Made by a program: the position numbers and the translations under genes
Origin: Enterobacteria phage SfV
Length of the DNA: 37,074 bases
Sequence record: NC_003444
Strand: one strand, 5' to 3'
The notes under the pieces: model-generated
What the model saw: the letters and a program-made list of their open reading frames with translations, nothing else
Databases searched by the model: none
Told to the model about the DNA's origin: nothing
In this document: piece by piece, positions 9,782-35,214 of the stretch
How positions within the stretch are numbered: position 1 is the stretch's first letter
Layout: the number at the start of each line of letters is the position of its first letter

Positions 9782-11609
9782 ATTTGAGCTTAAGGCGTTG
9801 ATCACCGGTGTCGACAGGCTTTCTCCCGCGCTGTCGAAAATGCAAAAGAAAATCCGGGGATTTAAACGCCAGGCGGAAGAAGCGTCACAGGGTGGGCTGG
9901 CGCTTGGTGGCGGACTGGCAGCGGGGCTGACGCTTTCCCTGAAATCTTATGCCGATCAGGAAAACGCCGCCACCGGGCTGAAAGTCGCCATGATGGATGC
10001 GAACGGCGAGGTTGGAAAGAGCTTTCAGGACATCAATAAACTGGCTATTGGCCTGGGTAACCAGCTACCCGGTACAACGGCTGATTTCCAGAACATGATG
10101 CAGATGCTGGTGCGTCAGGGGATCCCGGCAGAAAACATTCTGGGTGGTGTGGGTAAAGCGACAGCTTATCTTGCGGTACAACTGAAAAAAACACCGGAAG
10201 CGGCTGCCGAGTTTGCCGCAAAGATGCAGGATGCTACCGGAACGGCGTCAGAAGACATGATGGGGCTGTTCGACACTATCCAGAAGGCGTTTTATCTGGG
10301 CGTTGACGATACCAACATGTTGTCCTTCTTCACTAAAACCAGTTCTGTTCTGAAGATGGTGAACAAGGACGGTCTTCAGGCTGCACAGAGCCTTGCCCCC
10401 ATCAGCGTCATGATGGATCAGATGGGGATGAACGGGGAGTCGGCAGGTAATGCCCTGCGAAAAGTTATCCAGTCCGGATTAAGTGTTAAGAAAATCAGGG
10501 ACGTCAATAAAGTCATGGCCCGCCAGAAACTCGGAGTACAGCTCGATTTTACTGACGGCAAAGGAAGTTTTGGCGGTCTTGATAACATGTTCAGGCAACT
10601 GGCAAAGCTGCGAAAACTGACCGACGTTAAGCGAACCGGTGTACTTAAGGCAATATTTGGTGATGATGCCGAAACCCTTCAGGTGGTCAATGCGCTGATC
10701 GATAAAGGAAAGGATGGCTACGATCAGATCCAGCAGAAGATGAATAAACAGGCCAGCCTGAATAAACGTGTTCAGGCACAGCTTGGTACGCTGTCCAACC
10801 TGTGGGAGGCAATGACAGGGACCGCAACTAACGGCCTTGCGGCTATTGGCGGCGCATTTTCTGGTGACGCTAAAAATATCACACAATGGCTGGGGGAGTT
10901 GGGGGAGAAATTCACGAAGTTTGCGGATGAAAATCCCCGGGTTATTCGCGGCGTCGTCGGGCTTGCTGCCGGTCTTGCGATTCTGAAACTGGGATTGATG
11001 GGCGTTGGCGGTGCCATCAGTATTGTCAGCAGGATCATGTCGATGACGCCGATTGGCATGATTGCGACGGCGATAGCCCTGGCTGCGGGATTAATTATCA
11101 CTAACTGGGATGTTGTCGGACCTTATTTTAAGAAACTCTGGGAAACCATTGGTCCTTATTTTGAGGCTGGCTGGGAACTCCTTAAGAAAGTTTTTGCCTG
11201 GTCGCCGCTGGGGATGGTGATCAATAATTGGGGGCCGGTTGTTAAGTGGTTTCAGGATATGTGGGACAAGCTGAAGCCAATTATTGAGTGGTTTACCGAC
11301 AGTTCCGGTGACACGGTCGATGCCATTAACTCTGCGCAGTGGGGCGCGGGTGCTTATGATGCTTATGGGACGGGAATACCGGCGCGGGGATACACACCTT
11401 ATCCGGCGGTAGATCCGGCTCAGTCAAACAATGCCTCCGGTGCCACAGGCCCGAATCCCTTCATGATTAACAAAGCTTCTGCGCCAAAAGTTGATGGTGA
11501 GATCAAGGTATCTTTTGTGAATTCGCCTCCGGGTATGCGGGTTATGGAAACGCGATCCAGCGGTTTTGATGTCAGCCATGATGTTGGCTATACGCGCTTT
11601 GGCAGGTAA
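9774..11609 (+). CDS. tail tape measure protein
   Basis: 611 aa; Gly/Ala-rich hydrophobic segments; follows the chaperone pair. Confidence 0.85.
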   Translation: MAEFELKALITGVDRLSPALSKMQKKIRGFKRQAEEASQGGLALGGGLAAGLTLSLKSYADQENAATGLKVAMMDANGEVGKSFQDINKLAIGLGNQLPGTTADFQNMMQMLVRQGIPAENILGGVGKATAYLAVQLKKTPEAAAEFAAKMQDATGTASEDMMGLFDTIQKAFYLGVDDTNMLSFFTKTSSVLKMVNKDGLQAAQSLAPISVMMDQMGMNGESAGNALRKVIQSGLSVKKIRDVNKVMARQKLGVQLDFTDGKGSFGGLDNMFRQLAKLRKLTDVKRTGVLKAIFGDDAETLQVVNALIDKGKDGYDQIQQKMNKQASLNKRVQAQLGTLSNLWEAMTGTATNGLAAIGGAFSGDAKNITQWLGELGEKFTKFADENPRVIRGVVGLAAGLAILKLGLMGVGGAISIVSRIMSMTPIGMIATAIALAAGLIITNWDVVGPYFKKLWETIGPYFEAGWELLKKVFAWSPLGMVINNWGPVVKWFQDMWDKLKPIIEWFTDSSGDTVDAINSAQWGAGAYDAYGTGIPARGYTPYPAVDPAQSNNASGATGPNPFMINKASAPKVDGEIKVSFVNSPPGMRVMETRSSGFDVSHDVGYTRFGR

Positions 11610-14074: not shown

Positions 14075-14622
14075 TGAGGACGATTGAAGCCATGCAGCGA
14101 CAACTCCTCGGCCTGATTGGGCGGGCCGTGGTGAAAAGTATCAGTGCCGCCACGAAATGTCAGACCGTGGATGTGTCCCTGATTGCCGGTGAACCCAAAG
14201 CCGGGGTTGAACATCTTGAACCCTACGGTTTTACCGCAAGGGCAAACAGCGGTGCGGAAGCGGTGGTGTTGTTTCCGGATGGCGACCGTTCTCATGCGGT
14301 GGTTGTTACGGTGTCGGACCGGCGCTACCGCCTGAAAGGGCTGCAGACGGGTGAGGTGGCTGTCTATGACGATCAGGGGCAGTCCGTGACGCTGACCCGG
14401 GAGGGGATCGTGGTGGACGGTGCAGGTAAAACGATCACGTTTCGCAATGCACCTGAAGCACGTTTTGAAATGGACCTGGAAGTGACAGGACAGGTGAAAG
14501 ACCTGTGCGACTCCGGCGGCACCACCATGTCAGCGATGCGGCTTGCCTATAACGGCCATCGTCACAGAGAGAACGGTCAGGGCAGTAACACCGATAAACC
14601 TGATAAAGCGATGGAGGCATGA
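14074..14622 (+). CDS. baseplate assembly protein V / spike (Mu gp45-like)
   Basis: 182 aa; position and size. Confidence 0.8.
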   Translation: MRTIEAMQRQLLGLIGRAVVKSISAATKCQTVDVSLIAGEPKAGVEHLEPYGFTARANSGAEAVVLFPDGDRSHAVVVTVSDRRYRLKGLQTGEVAVYDDQGQSVTLTREGIVVDGAGKTITFRNAPEARFEMDLEVTGQVKDLCDSGGTTMSAMRLAYNGHRHRENGQGSNTDKPDKAMEA

Positions 14623-17857: not shown

Positions 17858-19111
17858 TTAAGGCTGTTTTTTTATTAATGTCATCGTCCATCCTGCAGGG
17901 TTGAACTTGAAAGAATACGATTCTCCTGGTGCTAAACTTTCAAATTTTTTAACTTGCTCTTTCCACCCGTAATCTGGGAGTGGGGTAAGATTGAAAAAAT
18001 ATAAACATGAGATTAACGATGTTGTATATAATATCCATGGTAGGAATTTAAAGTCCAACTGGGAAATATGGTTTAAGAAGTAAACCAATACAGAGTACCA
18101 TATAATTGTTGGTATGACAGAATATCTTCCCCCGCCATGAATTAATAATGGCCATTGCTCACTTGTAGAAGAAAGCATTGGTTTTGCTAGTGAAAACGTT
18201 AATGTTAGTATTGCGAAAACTATTGCCGAGCGCATGGGGTAATTGGAAACAATAAATGTAAAAATAGTGATGGAAAGACAAATCATTGTAATTGCAATGC
18301 AAATTGAATCATGATTCCATAAAGGTGGCAAAAAGTCACCATTAGCCCATAAACCCAGAAAAACCTTTGTTGTTAATATTTTGCAAAGTGTTGCGAAATT
18401 AGCTCCAAGAACCATATCAACTCTGGTCTCAGAGGATGTCATGATAATAGAAATAAATTGAATCAAACAAATAGCAATGAAAACGTATTCGTGAGTGGTG
18501 ATTTTTTTTGTAGATAAGCGTTTTTGTATAAGTATATTTATCCCTACCATTGGAGCCATGAACACTATAAATGGGCCACTTAGTCCACATATGATTATCG
18601 CTATATAATCGTGTGCTTTTTGATAATTATTTGTAGGCTTTGGAGCTAACATAACAAGAAGTAAATATAGTGATAAATACCAATGATCATTAGTAACATT
18701 GGCGTGCACTTCTGATACTTCCGGCATTGTTATAATAAACAAAGCAGTAAATATTCTTGGTGTTATGTTTACGTAACTAAATCTTCCAGAGAGTATGAAA
18801 GATACAAGCAATGCCCTAACAATAATTGCGGAGATGTTAAAAATTAAAGGGGCATACATTAAATTAAAATTTAATGATATGGAGGCAATAAGTTTTGATA
18901 TGGTTTGATAATATCCATTTTGAGGGAATATCATTGATGTGAATATCCCATTATTGTATGCCATAGCATACCATACATGAGCATCTTCTGCCCAAAACTG
19001 CGGTGCTCTGATTATATCAGGACGGCGCAAATACATCAAAATAACTGCAATGAAAAATACACCAATTAAGAAAAATAGTTTTTTTACATATGATGTTTTA
19101 AGGCTTTTCAT
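17858..19111 (-). CDS. gtrC: serotype-specific O-antigen glucosyltransferase GtrC (type-specific Gtr; matches my memory of 417-aa GtrV)
   Basis: 417-aa polytopic membrane protein directly downstream of gtrB; third gene of a gtrA-gtrB-gtr(type) cassette. Confidence 0.75.
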
Positions 19112-25685: not shown

Positions 25686-26360
25686 TTAGGCTTTGATTTT
25701 GTATCTTCTTGGTTTTCCTGAGAAAATCACCGTTCCAATTATAGAGCAATTACCGTTGATCTTAATGTAAGGCTCAGGCCAGTTTGGGTTTAACGCTTTG
25801 AGATAACGCTGTGTCCCATCTTCTATCAACCTTTTGAAGGTGGTTTCACCTGTATCGTGCATCAATGCAATAACGTCGTCACCGTGGCAGGCAGGTACTT
25901 CAGGATCGACAAAAATCATGTCTCCCGGGCGGTACTCATCAATCATTGAATCACCTATCACCCGTAAGATATAAGTCATTTCCCCACAGGGTACAGGGCA
26001 GGGATACGTTTCTGCTGTGCTCAAATCAACCTCAGAATATCCAACTTCTTTCCATGCTCCGGCCTGTACCCATGATATGACAGGGACTAATGTGATTTGT
26101 TTATTAGTGATTGAAACATCAGGTTTTTTTGTGATGTTCGTTGTCTGGTGTTCTTGATCGAGCCATCCGACAGGCAGGTCGAAACATTTTTCGATGTGTC
26201 GTGCCATGCTGTCACCGATATTTTTAGTAGCACCATCTCCCATAAACCTGCTGGTCTGGGTTGGCTCGCGATCAATCATGGTGGCAAAGGAAGAATTCCC
26301 GCCAACACCATCTCTCAGTTTTCTGGCGTTAGACCGCCGGATGTCATGGACTGTTTTCAT
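25686..26360 (-). CDS. cI: CI-type repressor (HTH plus S24 LexA-like autopeptidase domain)
   Basis: 224 aa; C-terminal S24 domain with GDSM serine motif and a conserved lysine downstream; divergent from cro across an operator region. Confidence 0.9.
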   Translation of the reverse strand: MKTVHDIRRSNARKLRDGVGGNSSFATMIDREPTQTSRFMGDGATKNIGDSMARHIEKCFDLPVGWLDQEHQTTNITKKPDVSITNKQITLVPVISWVQAGAWKEVGYSEVDLSTAETYPCPVPCGEMTYILRVIGDSMIDEYRPGDMIFVDPEVPACHGDDVIALMHDTGETTFKRLIEDGTQRYLKALNPNWPEPYIKINGNCSIIGTVIFSGKPRRYKIKA

Positions 26361-29123: not shown

Positions 29124-29614
29124 TCATGAGTCTTTTGAATGAAGTTCAGAAATTCATTGAAGCCCATCCGGGGTGTACTTCCGGAGACATTGCGGATGCT
29201 TTTGCAGGTTACTCACGGCAGCGCGTTCTGCAGTCAGCAAGCAAGTTACGTCAGAGTGGGCGTGTGGTTCACCGTTGTGAAGAGGATACACGCAGACATT
29301 TCCCGCGCCTGACTGAGAGAGCGCAGGAGCCGGAACCACAACCAGTTCGTGAAACCAGACCTGTGCGCAATTTCTATGTCGGCACTAACGATCCCCGGGT
29401 GATTTTGTGCCTGACCCGCCAGGCTGAAGAACTGGAGTCAAGGGGCTTATACCGTCGTGCTGCAACGGTGTGGATGGCGGCATTCCGTGAAAGCCACTCC
29501 CAGCAAGAGCGAAACAATTTTCTTGCGCGTCGTGAGCGGTGCTTACGGAAAAGCAGCAAGCGCGCTGCATCGGGTGATGAGTGGTATCTGTCAGGGAATT
29601 ACGTGGGGGCTTAA
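29120..29614 (+). CDS. PerC-like regulator domain protein
   Basis: 164 aa; C-terminal AEELESRGLYRRAATVWMAAF...RRERCL resembles the PerC-family signature from memory. Confidence 0.45.
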   Translation: MIMSLLNEVQKFIEAHPGCTSGDIADAFAGYSRQRVLQSASKLRQSGRVVHRCEEDTRRHFPRLTERAQEPEPQPVRETRPVRNFYVGTNDPRVILCLTRQAEELESRGLYRRAATVWMAAFRESHSQQERNNFLARRERCLRKSSKRAASGDEWYLSGNYVGA

Positions 29615-30267
29615 TGAGTAATAAATATTGCCAGGCGCTGGTGGAACTGCGGAACAAACCAGCCCATGAACTGAAGGAAGTGGGTGATCAGTGGCGCACG
29701 CCGGACAACATTTTCTGGGGAATTAACACCCTGTTTGGCCCGTTTGTTCTGGATCTGTTCACTGACGGTGATAACGCCAAATGTGCCGCGTATTACACGG
29801 CGGAAGACAACGCGCTGGCGCATGACTGGTCAGAACGCCTTGCGGAGCTTAAAGGTGCTGCCTTTGGTAATCCTCCATACAGCCGCGCCAGTCAGCATGA
29901 GGGGCAATACATCACCGGCATGCGTTACATCATGAAACATGCCAGTGCCATGCGTGATAAGGGCGGGCGCTATGTTTTCCTGATCAAAGCTGCCACCAGC
30001 GAAGTGTGGTGGCCGGAAGATGCAGATCATATTGCTTTTATTCGCGGGCGTATTGGTTTTGAACTGCCTGTCTGGTTTATCCCGAAAGACGAGAAGCAGG
30101 TACCGACAGGAGCTTTTTTCGCTGGTGCTATTGCTGTTTTTGACAAGACCTGGAAGGGACCGGCAATCAGCTACATCGGGCGCGATGAACTTGAGGCATG
30201 TGGTGAGGCGTTTCTGGCGCAGGTTCGCCAGCAGGCGGAAAAACTGGTCAGGGAGATGGTGGCATGA
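29614..30267 (+). CDS. phage-type DNA N6-adenine methyltransferase (Dam-like)
   Basis: ORF 29581..30267; ATG 29614 overlaps upstream stop (TAATG); catalytic NPPY motif (FGNPPYS). Confidence 0.8.
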   Translation: MSNKYCQALVELRNKPAHELKEVGDQWRTPDNIFWGINTLFGPFVLDLFTDGDNAKCAAYYTAEDNALAHDWSERLAELKGAAFGNPPYSRASQHEGQYITGMRYIMKHASAMRDKGGRYVFLIKAATSEVWWPEDADHIAFIRGRIGFELPVWFIPKDEKQVPTGAFFAGAIAVFDKTWKGPAISYIGRDELEACGEAFLAQVRQQAEKLVREMVA

Positions 30268-30590
30268 CGACGTTAACTCAATGCCAGCAGCAGGTGCTGG
30301 ATATGCTGATTTCTTATCAGAAAGAACGTGGCTTCCCGCCAACCAATCAGGAGGTGGCAACCATGCTGGGATACCGTTCAGTGAATGCAGCGGTGGAGCA
30401 TCTTCGCGCACTGGAGAAAAAAGGCATCATCACGATAAAGCGTGGCGTGGCCCGGGGGATCACGCTTCATACCGCGGTGAAGGACGACGACAGCGAGGCT
30501 GTCGGGATTATCCGCTCACTGCTTGCCGGTGAGGAAAACGCCAGGCTGCGTGCAACCCACTGGTTACATAAGAGGGGCCTGAAAGTATGA
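30264..30590 (+). CDS. LexA N-terminal DNA-binding-domain protein lacking a peptidase domain
   Basis: 108 aa; residues 4-70 align by eye with the LexA winged-helix DBD; no S24 domain; ATGA-coupled on both sides. Confidence 0.7.
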   Translation: MTTLTQCQQQVLDMLISYQKERGFPPTNQEVATMLGYRSVNAAVEHLRALEKKGIITIKRGVARGITLHTAVKDDDSEAVGIIRSLLAGEENARLRATHWLHKRGLKV

Positions 30591-30976
30591 AGCTGATCCT
30601 GCCTTTCCCGCCCAGCGTGAACACGTACTGGCGACACCCCAACAAAGGGGCGTTTGCAGGTAAGAGCCTAATAAGCGCGGCGGGGCGAAAATTTCAGAGC
30701 GCGGCGTGCGCAGCAATAGTTGAACAGTTACGTCGTCTGCCGAAACCAACGTCGGCACCTGCTTCAGTGGAGATCGTGTTGTTTCCTCCGGATAACAGGA
30801 TCCGCGATCTGGACAACTATAACAAGGCGCTGTTTGACGTTCTGACCCACGCGGGTGTGTGGGAAGACGACAGCCAGGTGAAAAGAATGCTGGTGGAGTG
30901 GGGACCGGTTATCCCGGAAGGGAAGGTCGAGATCACTATCAGTAAGTACGAGAAAACGGCGGGTGCAGCCGCCTGA
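30587..30976 (+). CDS. rusA: Holliday-junction resolvase RusA
   Basis: 129 aa; N-terminus MKLILPFPPSVNTYWRH and conserved acidic residues typical of RusA. Confidence 0.9.
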   Translation: MKLILPFPPSVNTYWRHPNKGAFAGKSLISAAGRKFQSAACAAIVEQLRRLPKPTSAPASVEIVLFPPDNRIRDLDNYNKALFDVLTHAGVWEDDSQVKRMLVEWGPVIPEGKVEITISKYEKTAGAAA

Positions 30977-30995
30977 GCAAGAGGAGAAACGAAGT

Positions 30996-31805
30996 ATGAA
31001 TAATCTGATGGTCATTGATGGTATTGAAGTTCGTCGTGATGCTTATGGGCGTTACAGCCTGAACGATCTGCACAGGGCAGCCGGGGGAGAACAAAAAAAC
31101 CGCCCGAAATACTGGCTCTCCAATAAGCAAACCTGTGAATTGATTGAACAACTTTTCACCGAGGGTGGAATTCCGCCTCTGGAACAAAATCAACCAGTTA
31201 GCGTCATTAATGGCGGAAATAACCAGGGGACGTATGTCTGCAAAGAACTGGTGTATGCCTATGCAATGTGGATCAGCCCGTCATTCCATCTGAAGGTGAT
31301 CCGTACTTTCGATATGGTAACCAGCACACCGGAAAAATTATCCGGGCAGGCTGCTGACAAGATGCAGGCTGGAGTGATTCTGCTGGACTTTATGCGCAGG
31401 GAGTTAAACCTGTCTAACTCTTCAGTGCTTGGGGCCTGTCAGAAACTCCAGGAGGCTGTTGGCTTACCGAATCTGGCACCGCGCTATGCCATTGATGCTC
31501 CTGCTGATGCACACGATGGCTCAAGTCGCCCGACACTGTCACTGAGTGCACTGCTGAAACAGTATGGTATCCGCCTGACGGCTAATCAGGCATATCACCA
31601 GATGGTGAAGCTGGGGATCGTCGAGCAGCGCGAACGATACAGCCGTACCGGGATTAACAACATCAAAAAATTCTGGTCGCTGACGGCGAAAGGCTGCATG
31701 TTCGGCAAGAACATCACCAGTCCCGCAAATCCGCGCGAGACGCAGCCGCATTTCTTCGAATCCCGATTCCCTGAGCTGTTAAAGCTGCTCGATACCGTTC
31801 ATTGA
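30996..31805 (+). CDS. KilA-N domain protein (antirepressor-like)
   Basis: ORF 30963..31805; ATG 30996 after GAGGAG; N-terminal KilA-N-like region. Confidence 0.7.
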   Translation: MNNLMVIDGIEVRRDAYGRYSLNDLHRAAGGEQKNRPKYWLSNKQTCELIEQLFTEGGIPPLEQNQPVSVINGGNNQGTYVCKELVYAYAMWISPSFHLKVIRTFDMVTSTPEKLSGQAADKMQAGVILLDFMRRELNLSNSSVLGACQKLQEAVGLPNLAPRYAIDAPADAHDGSSRPTLSLSALLKQYGIRLTANQAYHQMVKLGIVEQRERYSRTGINNIKKFWSLTAKGCMFGKNITSPANPRETQPHFFESRFPELLKLLDTVH

Positions 31806-33817: not shown

Positions 33818-34012
33818 ATGCTAAAACAGCAAGATATGACAGAAACGGCGAAAGTTGTTTTTAATGAATTAAGCATCGAACCGGCAACAGTCGGGGAGAT
33901 TGCACAAAACACATATCTTTCACGCGAACGCTGTCAGTTAATACTGACCCAGTTGGTTATGGCGGGGCTGGCAGATTACCAGTTCGGCTGTTACAGACGC
34001 CTTCAGCAATGA
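33818..34012 (+). CDS. small putative DNA-binding protein (64 aa)
   Basis: ORF 33698..34012; ATG 33818 after AAGGAAAAAGG; first gene after tR'. Confidence 0.45.
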   Translation: MLKQQDMTETAKVVFNELSIEPATVGEIAQNTYLSRERCQLILTQLVMAGLADYQFGCYRRLQQ

Positions 34013-34161
34013 AGGACTTTTAATTTGTGAAAATGGGCGGCTGGTGGGTGTTGGTAGCACCTGCCAGCCATTCGCTCATGCTTACTGGTCACAAGCGAAC
34101 CACGGCCCACTGCTTTAGCGCAAAAGCAGAGTGAGCCTACCAGAGTTACGCTTACTGATCC

Positions 34162-35214
34162 ATGAAAAATACTGTAAAAATAAACAGTGTTGATTTAATC
34201 AACGCTGATTGCCTGCATTTTATTCAGTCCCTGCCTGATGATTCCATTGACCTGATTGTTACCGATCCGCCGTACTTCAAGGTGAAACCCAACGGTTGGG
34301 ACAATCAGTGGAAAGGGGACGAAGATTACCTTAAGTGGCTGGATCACTGTCTGGCCCAGTTCTGGCGGGTGTTGAAACCTGCCGGAAGCCTTTACCTGTT
34401 CTGTGGACATCGCCTGGCATCTGATATTGAGATCATGATGCGTGAACGTTTCAACGTGCTTAACCATATCATCTGGGCGAAGCCGTCCGGACGTTGGAAT
34501 GGGTGTAATAAAGAAAGTCTGCGTGCATATTTTCCTGCCACAGAGCGCGTTCTGTTTGCTGAACATTACCAGGGGCCATATCGTGGCAAAAGTGACGGCT
34601 ATGCGGCAAAAGAAAGGGAACTCAAACAGCACATAATGGCACCGCTGATATCGTATTTCAGGAATGCTCGTGCCGAACTGGGTATAACGGCAAAACAAAT
34701 TGCCGAAGCCACAGGTAAGAAAAATATGGTTTCCCACTGGTTTGGTGCCAGTCAGTGGCAGTTGCCGAATGAGGCTGACTACCGGAAGTTACAGGCACTG
34801 TTTTCCCGTATAGCGGCAGAGAAGTTTCAGGAACAGCAACTGGAACAACCACACCACCAGCTGGTGGCATCTTATGATTCACTGAATCGCAAATATTCTG
34901 AATTGCTGGATGAGTTTAAATCACTCCGGCGCTATTTCTCCGTATCAGTCTCCGTGCCTTATACCGATGTCTGGACGCATAAGCCCGTTCAGTTCTATCC
35001 GGGTAAACATCCGTGCGAGAAACCGGCGGATATGCTCCGGCAAATAATCAATGCCAGTAGTCGACCAGGCGATCTGGTTGCTGATTTCTTTATGGGATCC
35101 GGTTCCACAATAAAAGCGGCAATGGCGCTGGGGCGTCAGGCGTTAGGTGTTGAACTTGAGTCAGAGCGGTTTAATCAGATGGTGAAAGAGGTAAGTGAAC
35201 TGGTGGGGAAATAA
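34162..35214 (+). CDS. orphan DNA methyltransferase (beta-class N6A/N4C amino-MTase)
   Basis: 350 aa; motif IV DPPY near N-terminus (LIVTDPPYF) and SAM-binding motif I near C-terminus (DLVADFFMGSGST); no adjacent endonuclease. Confidence 0.85.
   Translation: MKNTVKINSVDLINADCLHFIQSLPDDSIDLIVTDPPYFKVKPNGWDNQWKGDEDYLKWLDHCLAQFWRVLKPAGSLYLFCGHRLASDIEIMMRERFNVLNHIIWAKPSGRWNGCNKESLRAYFPATERVLFAEHYQGPYRGKSDGYAAKERELKQHIMAPLISYFRNARAELGITAKQIAEATGKKNMVSHWFGASQWQLPNEADYRKLQALFSRIAAEKFQEQQLEQPHHQLVASYDSLNRKYSELLDEFKSLRRYFSVSVSVPYTDVWTHKPVQFYPGKHPCEKPADMLRQIINASSRPGDLVADFFMGSGSTIKAAMALGRQALGVELESERFNQMVKEVSELVGK

Follow-up and report, generated by a model that had tools for sequence, protein, structure and literature searches.

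A LexA-type DNA-binding protein without autopeptidase domain in the nin operon of phage SfV: a candidate RecA-insensitive operator binder

What use could a temperate phage have for the DNA-binding head of LexA when the self-cleaving part of LexA is missing? The question is raised by a gene of Enterobacteria phage SfV (sequence record NC_003444), which was analysed over a stretch of 37,074 nucleotides, hereafter the window. An earlier note, made from the sequence alone, had described the gene product as a protein of 108 amino acids (aa) which resembles the N-terminal winged helix of LexA, lacks the Ser-Lys protease domain, is encoded in a nin-like region and could occupy SOS boxes without being removed by RecA. 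We refer to it as the LexA-DBD-only protein, DBD standing for DNA-binding domain. The reading that we favour, tentatively and at somewhat less than an even chance, is that of a RecA-insensitive, LexA-type operator binder which would dimerise through a C-terminal helical hairpin, be made in lytic growth and bind SOS-box-like palindromes.

The LexA-DBD-only protein is a true LexA-type winged helix and belongs to no other winged-helix family. Its residues 1-65 cover all 65 positions of the Pfam profile LexA_DNA_bind (PF01726; E 4.8e-19, 68.3 bits, cutoff 23.7), and other winged-helix Pfam families, the alternative that the earlier note had named, score far under their thresholds. A phmmer search of the PDB sequences returned LexA proteins only, with E. 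coli LexA (1lea, 1jhh) at E ~1e-15 and aligned over residues 2-90. When the first AlphaFold model was compared with the PDB by Foldseek, the top 12 matches were all LexA DBDs, with a root-mean-square deviation of 1.6 Å over ~68 residues and 48-50% identity, and other winged-helix repressors came later, only at E>0.005. A further AlphaFold model (AF2), built from 21 family sequences, has a predicted local distance difference test score (pLDDT) of 83. The resemblance described in the earlier note is therefore borne out by profile, sequence and structure comparison alike, and the reading frame on which it was based matches the open reading frame (ORF) listing exactly.

The second part of the description, the missing protease, is also correct. 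No Pfam match to Peptidase_S24 (PF00717) was found in the protein, there is no counterpart of Ser119 or Lys156, and the chain ends at residue 108. Against the NCBIfam LexA equivalog TIGR00498 it scores 70.3 bits, where the cutoff is 110.95, with positions 1-91 of 203 aligned. Since it has no S24 domain, RecA-stimulated self-cleavage cannot inactivate it.

In E. coli LexA the DNA contacts of helix III are made by Ser39, Asn41, Ala42, Glu44 and Glu45 (PMC3091678). Four of these five are retained in the alignment (S39, N41, A42 and E45), and E44 is replaced by V, so that the core of the recognition helix reads RSVNAAVEHL here and RSPNAAEEHL in LexA. Most of the distant family members retain S39, N41, A42, E45 and also H46, and a few alter E45 or N41. 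Recognition of SOS-box-type (CTGT) sites is on the evidence of these residues plausible.

Selection on the gene was estimated from 66 distinct alleles in the fetched loci, with 33 protein variants. All but one of the alleles (65/66) are intact, and the ratio of non-synonymous to synonymous polymorphism (pN/pS) is 0.10 overall, 0.03 in the DBD and 0.21 in the tail; residues 34-51, which include most of the recognition helix, show zero amino-acid variation among the protein variants. Strong purifying selection together with the intact alleles indicates that the protein is functional and that its DBD and its tail both matter. These figures bear directly on a different explanation, namely that the gene is what is left of a captured lexA, in decay and without present function, or that its product is a substrate for cleavage in trans at a relic Ala-Gly pair. 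The alignment to LexA does extend into the hairpin as far as A88-G89, which stands opposite the A84-G85 cleavage site of LexA, as would be expected if it derives from a truncated lexA; there are also database copies with frameshifts (P0024, P0033, P0056, P0068). The selection just described speaks against decay or trans-cleavage, as do the architecture, which is conserved to 38% identity, and the Ala-Gly pair itself, which is not conserved: position 88 is A, S or V, and at position 89 some close members have N, the distant ones R, D, C or E. The explanation by decay is already disfavoured, and we regard it as very improbable. A88-G89 was rejected as a working trans-cleavage site for the same lack of conservation and is read as a relic. 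The internal frameshifts in the four database copies are of the kind expected of decaying cryptic prophages.

The tail begins with an acidic linker whose length varies across the family, with insertions and deletions there in the family alignments, and continues into a predicted two-helix hairpin (Table 1). Within the hairpin, I82, I83, L86, L87, A97, W100 and L101 are hydrophobic positions in 21/21 family sequences, down to 38% identity. Searched alone against Pfam, the tail gave nothing above threshold, the best match being NIL (E 0.044, 14.1 bits, cutoff 24). A hairpin of ~30 residues with seven or eight invariant hydrophobics cannot bury a core alone, and self-association is its simplest reading; the hairpin is probably a dimerisation module. 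The same features (a small, conserved tail with no known domain match on a flexible linker) would also suit a hairpin that contacts a host or phage partner (RNA polymerase, for example, or a protein of replication or recombination, or another regulator) in place of itself and tethers it to CTGT sites, or a DBD that works as a monomer on half-sites, and the constant position of the gene among genes of DNA metabolism (Dam, RusA, DUF968/HNH) could be taken in the same sense. No partner was found to co-vary with the gene: many carrier loci have no Dam, and the LexA-like gene can be absent where RusA and DUF968 are found. Further, the LexA DBD by itself does not act as a repressor in vivo (PMC7160566). 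Partner binding or monomeric action is for these reasons improbable, and self-association through the hairpin is retained in what follows.

The setting of the gene suggests when the protein would be made. The nin-like location given in the earlier note is correct: the gene belongs to the nin operon, where it comes after the replication genes and before the antiterminator gene Q. The order in the window is replication protein, PerC-like, Dam methylase, LexA-DBD-only gene, RusA, KilA-N, DUF968/HNH and Q antiterminator. A GGAG Shine-Dalgarno sequence lies 8 nucleotides 5' of the ATG, and the gene overlaps both dam and rusA by an ATGA, the junction with rusA being annotated in the same way in RefSeq and in phage records. 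The two overlaps suggest that the gene is translationally coupled within the PR/nin operon, and we infer expression following induction or infection, with none in the lysogen. The phage CI does carry an S24 domain (Table 1), as the earlier note had also said. Since the operators of CI differ from those of LexA-type domains, the antagonism between CI and the LexA-DBD-only protein that was proposed there is speculative.

Put together, the gene would encode a delayed-early protein composed of a LexA-type DBD, a short flexible linker and the hairpin, and the mechanism would run as follows. The hairpin would self-associate, for example as a four-helix bundle, and thereby bring two DBDs together, and the paired DBDs would bind palindromic operators made of CTGT-type half-sites, that is, SOS-box-like sequences. 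If the protein is dimeric, the conserved contact residues make such palindromes, and therefore SOS boxes, its most likely targets, and RecA would give no relief. Its synthesis from the PR/nin operon would be confined to the time that follows induction or infection, with host LexA already cleaved or in the course of cleavage. The protein would then restore occupancy of promoters under LexA control, in the host as well as in co-resident elements, in a form that DNA damage cannot reverse. Dimerisation, the sequence and spacing of the operator, the timing of expression and repression as the outcome are what we infer in this scheme. Since the LexA DBD alone does not repress, SOS occupancy would depend on the proposed dimerisation via the hairpin, a feature that the earlier note had overlooked. 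It is tempting to go further and to see in the protein a natural damage-proof LexA, carried by prophages, Stx2-converting phages among them, in ~41% of E. coli genomes, lytic-only and hairpin-dimerised, which re-closes SOS operators after the loss of host LexA. In this extended form the proposal is doubtful. If true, it would mean a shut-off of SOS functions, of LexA-controlled colicins and toxins and of the LexA-controlled antirepressors of competing prophages during phage replication.

A search for operators in the window was made with an approximate position weight matrix (PWM) derived from ~25 LexA sites of E. coli. It gave one strong canonical SOS box (Table 1); the next-best site scores 9.2 bits, and the maximum over 300 Markov shuffles was 20.0. 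Codons 4-10 of the gene for a late N6/N4 DNA methylase (34162..35214) hold the box, which lies downstream of Q and of the PR' terminator. It is kept in phiNP and Kp4866-6, identical in the former, a Citrobacter phage, and as a CCAG variant in the latter, a Klebsiella phage. Plain counts of CTGT-N8-ACAG across the window showed no overall enrichment. Among 63 arrangements of CTGT/ACAG half-sites (inverted, everted and direct repeats at spacings of 0-20), the sole outlier was ACAG-N14-CTGT, with 4 sites where 0.35 are expected (z ~6), at 14485, 17623, 23822 and 27358. As these sites lie in unrelated coding regions and share no flanks, the excess is probably due to chance among 63 tests.

Several points weigh against an SOS-box binder of the kind proposed. 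In the window, none of the CTGT arrangements shows a convincing enrichment. The residue at position 44 is V here and hydrophobic or small in all distant family members, and with E45 and N41 altered in some of these, the specificity may differ from that of host LexA. Some members of the family are tail-less, for instance that of Edwardsiella EPP-1 (71 aa). Dimerisation is a proposal, and the operator spacing would depend on the geometry of the putative dimer. By analogy, the only characterised truncated LexA of a phage, GIL01 gp6, points elsewhere, being an activator with a site unlike the host box. At least one strong box is found within 10 kb in 41 of 80 IMG/VR loci that encode close relatives, and in a control of DUF968-anchored loci, one genome per species (n=38), strong boxes are present in 3 of 9 loci with the LexA-like gene as against 13 of 29 without it.

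The boxes of the IMG/VR carrier loci sit in four different mosaic modules (Table 1). The most frequent, the methylase box, at first sight travels with the gene, as 26 of the 27 phage records that contain the methylase-box segment also have the LexA-like gene. In a reverse test on IMG/VR loci found via the methylase box and having at least 8 kb of upstream sequence (n=19), the LexA-like gene was present in 16/19, RusA likewise in 16/19 and DUF968 in 18/19, and some methylase-box loci keep Dam, RusA and DUF968 yet are without the LexA-like gene. The methylase box is common in prophages of Enterobacter, Buttiauxella, Rosenbergiella, Phytobacter and E. albertii that have no LexA-like gene, and another recurrent box of the control loci precedes a DinI moron. 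The methylase box is thus unsupported as a dedicated target, its association with the gene being equal to that of the nin neighbours and the box being widespread without the gene; general enrichment of SOS boxes near the LexA-like gene was not found in the carrier and control counts given above. Boxes are equally common in prophages without the LexA-like gene, so no specific target is supported. The phage SOS boxes are ordinary features regulated by host LexA, and the comparative data do not support the LexA-DBD-only protein as a partner dedicated to them. In the earlier note's picture of a non-cleavable LexA-like protein on SOS boxes, the LexA type and the missing autopeptidase stand, recognition of SOS-type sites is plausible, and the function proposed gains no comparative support from the boxes; the box search proposed there did yield one strong site in the phage, of a kind that is as frequent in prophages without the gene.

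The main alternative is a transcription factor proper to the phage, of the gp6 type. Its LexA-derived domain would have drifted to an operator of its own in the phage genome and there activate or repress a phage promoter, so as to time expression, with little effect on the host SOS regulon. The activation of the late promoter P3 of GIL01 from a site other than the host box (PMC6182141) is a precedent, the family-wide replacement of E44 and the variability of E45 and N41 in some members suggest diversifying specificity, and the carrier phages have no excess of SOS boxes. On the other side, the subfamily in the window keeps four of the five LexA contacts and is 48-50% identical to E. coli LexA; the window yielded no conserved palindrome of a non-SOS type, and its ACAG-N14-CTGT sites lack shared flanks; and with the late genes under the Q antiterminator a gp6-like activator is not obviously needed. 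Nor was a candidate found in the window for a gp6-type activator site at the -35 element of a late promoter. An operator of the phage's own is a real possibility, if on the unlikely side, and we continue to favour, with the reserve expressed at the outset, a dimeric binder of SOS-box-like palindromes.

Table 1. Features of the LexA-DBD-only gene and its surroundings in the window, and SOS boxes in loci of close relatives.
Feature	Coordinates	Strand	Basis or remark
LexA-DBD-only gene, complete	30264..30590	+	ATG start, 108 aa, stop codon 30588-30590; ORF listing
LexA-type winged helix-turn-helix, residues 1-69	30264..30470	+	helices 6-22, 28-35, 40-52; beta wing 56-68; AF2 models
Recognition helix, residues 38-52, RSVNAAVEHLRALEK (LexA: RSPNAAEEHLKALAR)	30375..30419	+	alignment to E. 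coli LexA
Acidic flexible linker TAVKDD, residues 70-75	30471..30488	+	pLDDT <50 at residues 71-75, both models
Predicted two-helix hairpin, residues 76-108	30489..30587	+	helices 74-88, 93-103; pLDDT ~90 at residues 81-100
ATGA overlap, LexA-DBD-only start and Dam-type methylase stop	30264..30267	+	sequence
Dam-type methylase gene, upstream neighbour	29581..30267	+	Dam PF05869, E 1e-45
ATGA overlap, LexA-DBD-only stop and rusA start	30587..30590	+	sequence
rusA, downstream neighbour	30587..30976	+	RusA PF05866
KilA-N gene, after rusA	30963..31805		no SOS box before it
Phage CI gene, Peptidase_S24 domain	25686..26360	minus	PF00717, E 1.5e-26
Sole strong SOS box of canonical type in the window, TACTGTAAAAATAAACAGTG	34170..34189	.	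PWM 22.5 bits, a score in the training-site range
Methylase box			25 of 80 IMG/VR loci
Box inside alternative cI coding region			~23 of 80 IMG/VR loci
Box upstream of variant KilA-N gene			4 of 80 IMG/VR loci
One further box			2 of 80 IMG/VR loci

Some observations on the boxes and their surroundings are recorded in their own right. The methylase box is kept across prophages of several genera, and its non-synonymous variants TACTGTAAATATAAACAGTG and TACTGTAAAAATATCCAGTG retain the CTGT...(A/C)CAG core, which suggests selection at the level of the DNA. The non-coding leader in front of the methylase gene (34040-34160) has ~91% column identity among E. coli, Citrobacter and Klebsiella phages and is as conserved as coding sequence; it contains a hairpin, CTGCTTT-AGCGCA-AAAGCAG, at 34110-34129 that has no Rfam match. 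Between the PR' terminator and the methylase lies an ORF of 64 aa (33818-34012) with weak, sub-threshold winged-helix matches (DprA_WH, TrmB and MarR); the late leader may thus encode another small protein that binds DNA. The alternative cI of other loci carries its box, TACTGTTTTTACATACAGTA (25 bits; L016, 5546-5565), in the linker between the helix-turn-helix and S24 domains, and the window's own cI does not have it. The box TACTGTATTTATGAACAGTG (L071, ~10628-10647) is intergenic and directly upstream of the variant, antirepressor-like KilA-N gene, which in this type of locus lies two genes downstream of the LexA-like gene.

The window opens with the small terminase subunit and closes with a terminal HNH gene, the gene order being that of Shigella phage SfII, and also holds an integrase gene, gtrA, gtrB and a type-specific gtr gene; it therefore represents the complete genome of an SfII/SfIV-like serotype-converting temperate phage. 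The type-specific gtr gene (17858-19111, minus strand, beside gtrA/gtrB) encodes 417 aa without a Pfam match and may set an O-antigen modification unlike that of the 486-aa GtrII of SfII. The phage has two unrelated DNA methyltransferases, the Dam-type enzyme in the nin region (PF05869, 29581-30267) and the late N6_N4_Mtase (PF01555, 34162-35214). In and around the LexA-DBD-only gene no RNA family was found above chance, and membership of a defence system was rejected, PADLOC giving only a marginal winged-helix match.

As an object, the LexA-DBD-only protein is not new. It matches phrog_362 ('transcriptional repressor') from end to end (1-108 against 1-106 of 106, E 2.2e-59), and by tblastn relatives of 93-98% identity are found in SfII, SfIV, mEp460, cdtI, 1720a-02, Stx2a and Stx2c phages and others. 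Of 5426 complete E. coli genomes, 2233 (41%) carry the gene, in up to 4 copies per genome. RefSeq names the product 'LexA family transcriptional regulator', and the names in phage records range from 'LexA-like protein' to 'RecA-mediated autopeptidase'; the labels of this family, 'LexA repressor' also among them, stem from annotation transfer rather than from tested function, and 'RecA-mediated autopeptidase' is wrong. Literature searches found no published functional study of this enterobacterial family of short LexA-like proteins. With the family catalogued in phrog_362 and RefSeq and a truncated LexA of a phage, GIL01 gp6, already characterised, the earlier note overrated the novelty. What is new about this catalogued and extremely common protein is its anatomy, the selection on it and its operon coupling, and what sets it apart among truncated LexA homologues of phages is the combination of host-like recognition residues with a C-terminal hairpin of its own.

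The wider family has the same outline. A search of 1.84 billion cluster representatives gave at least 10 clusters at 50% identity in which a DBD is followed by a tail (104-165 aa). All the distant homologues, found in mEp390 and in Klebsiella, Edwardsiella and Hafnia phages, are short proteins (71-123 aa). Three of them adjoin RusA and/or DUF968-HNH upstream of Q, and the fourth, that of Hafnia yong2, adjoins an integrase. The nin order of RusA, DUF968/HNH and then Q is common to SfII, mEp390, the Klebsiella and Edwardsiella phages and the RefSeq E. coli loci. Three proteins of ~140-165 aa, P0131, P0153 and P0159, contain two tandem LexA DBDs and no S24 domain, P0153 with two PF01726 stretches, and look like single-chain pseudo-dimers of the LexA head.

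Another side observation concerns Stx phage 1720a-02 (KF030445.1), a 'bully phage' that is reported to block induction of the co-resident phage phiNP and that carries the LexA-like gene. In phiNP (OR565852.1) the methylase with its SOS box is present and the LexA-like gene is absent. The preprint on this 'bully phage' ascribes the interference to Cro and does not discuss the LexA-like gene.

The existence of the LexA-DBD-only protein will be no surprise to the specialist; its abundance, in Stx2 phages among others, gives it weight. If SOS operators are bound, induction of common E. coli and Shigella prophages, including those of Stx2a and Stx2c, would actively reshape the way in which the host responds to DNA damage, and not just follow it. 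This would bear on antibiotic-triggered SOS mutagenesis, on the dynamics of Shiga-toxin phage induction and on competition between co-resident prophages through LexA-controlled antirepressors and morons. It would also be a second, independently evolved domestication of the DNA-binding head of host LexA by a phage, after GIL01 gp6. Should the protein have an operator of its own instead, it would be one more ordinary phage regulator.

The closest systems for comparison are the phrog_362 proteins of SfII (gp44), SfIV, mEp460, cdtI and the Stx2a/Stx2c phages, which belong to the same family in the same arrangement of Dam, LexA-like gene and RusA and show no structural difference. The truncated LexA homologue gp6 of GIL01, a tectivirus of Bacillus thuringiensis, activates the late promoter P3 (Fornelos et al. 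2018, PMC6182141) from a site, GaCACAnnTGTGaC, that is distinct from the host LexA box (PMC6182141). Both gp6 and the LexA-DBD-only protein come from temperate phages, consist essentially of PF01726 without S24 and are, in the latter case by the position of its gene, expressed with early genes. They differ in that gp6 has 66 aa, no C-terminal hairpin and acts as an activator, whereas the protein studied here has 108 aa and the hairpin. Homology between the two was rejected, since BLASTP gave no alignment at E<=100 and only the Pfam domain is shared; with no pairwise similarity they are taken as independent captures from different hosts, the LexA-DBD-only protein being much closer to E. coli LexA than to gp6.

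With E. coli LexA (1jhh/3jso) the protein shares the fold of the DBD, and their alignment runs on across the linker up to the Ala-Gly pair. The S24 domain of LexA, responsible for catalysis and dimerisation, is replaced by the helical hairpin of 33 residues. In design the protein resembles engineered fusions. The LexA DBD alone is the negative control of the sulA-lacZ dimerisation assay and does not repress sulA, whereas the same DBD fused to any dimerising partner represses it (PMC7160566). The LexA(1-87)-dimeriser fusions of this system (Dmitrova et al. 1998, as used in PMC7160566) are artificial and have the wild-type LexA DBD, whereas the phage protein has a diverged DBD (E44V and others) and a tail for which self-association is proposed. 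The layout is the same in both, a DBD followed by a linker and a small module, and in the engineered fusions it makes a RecA-insensitive repressor of SOS operators.

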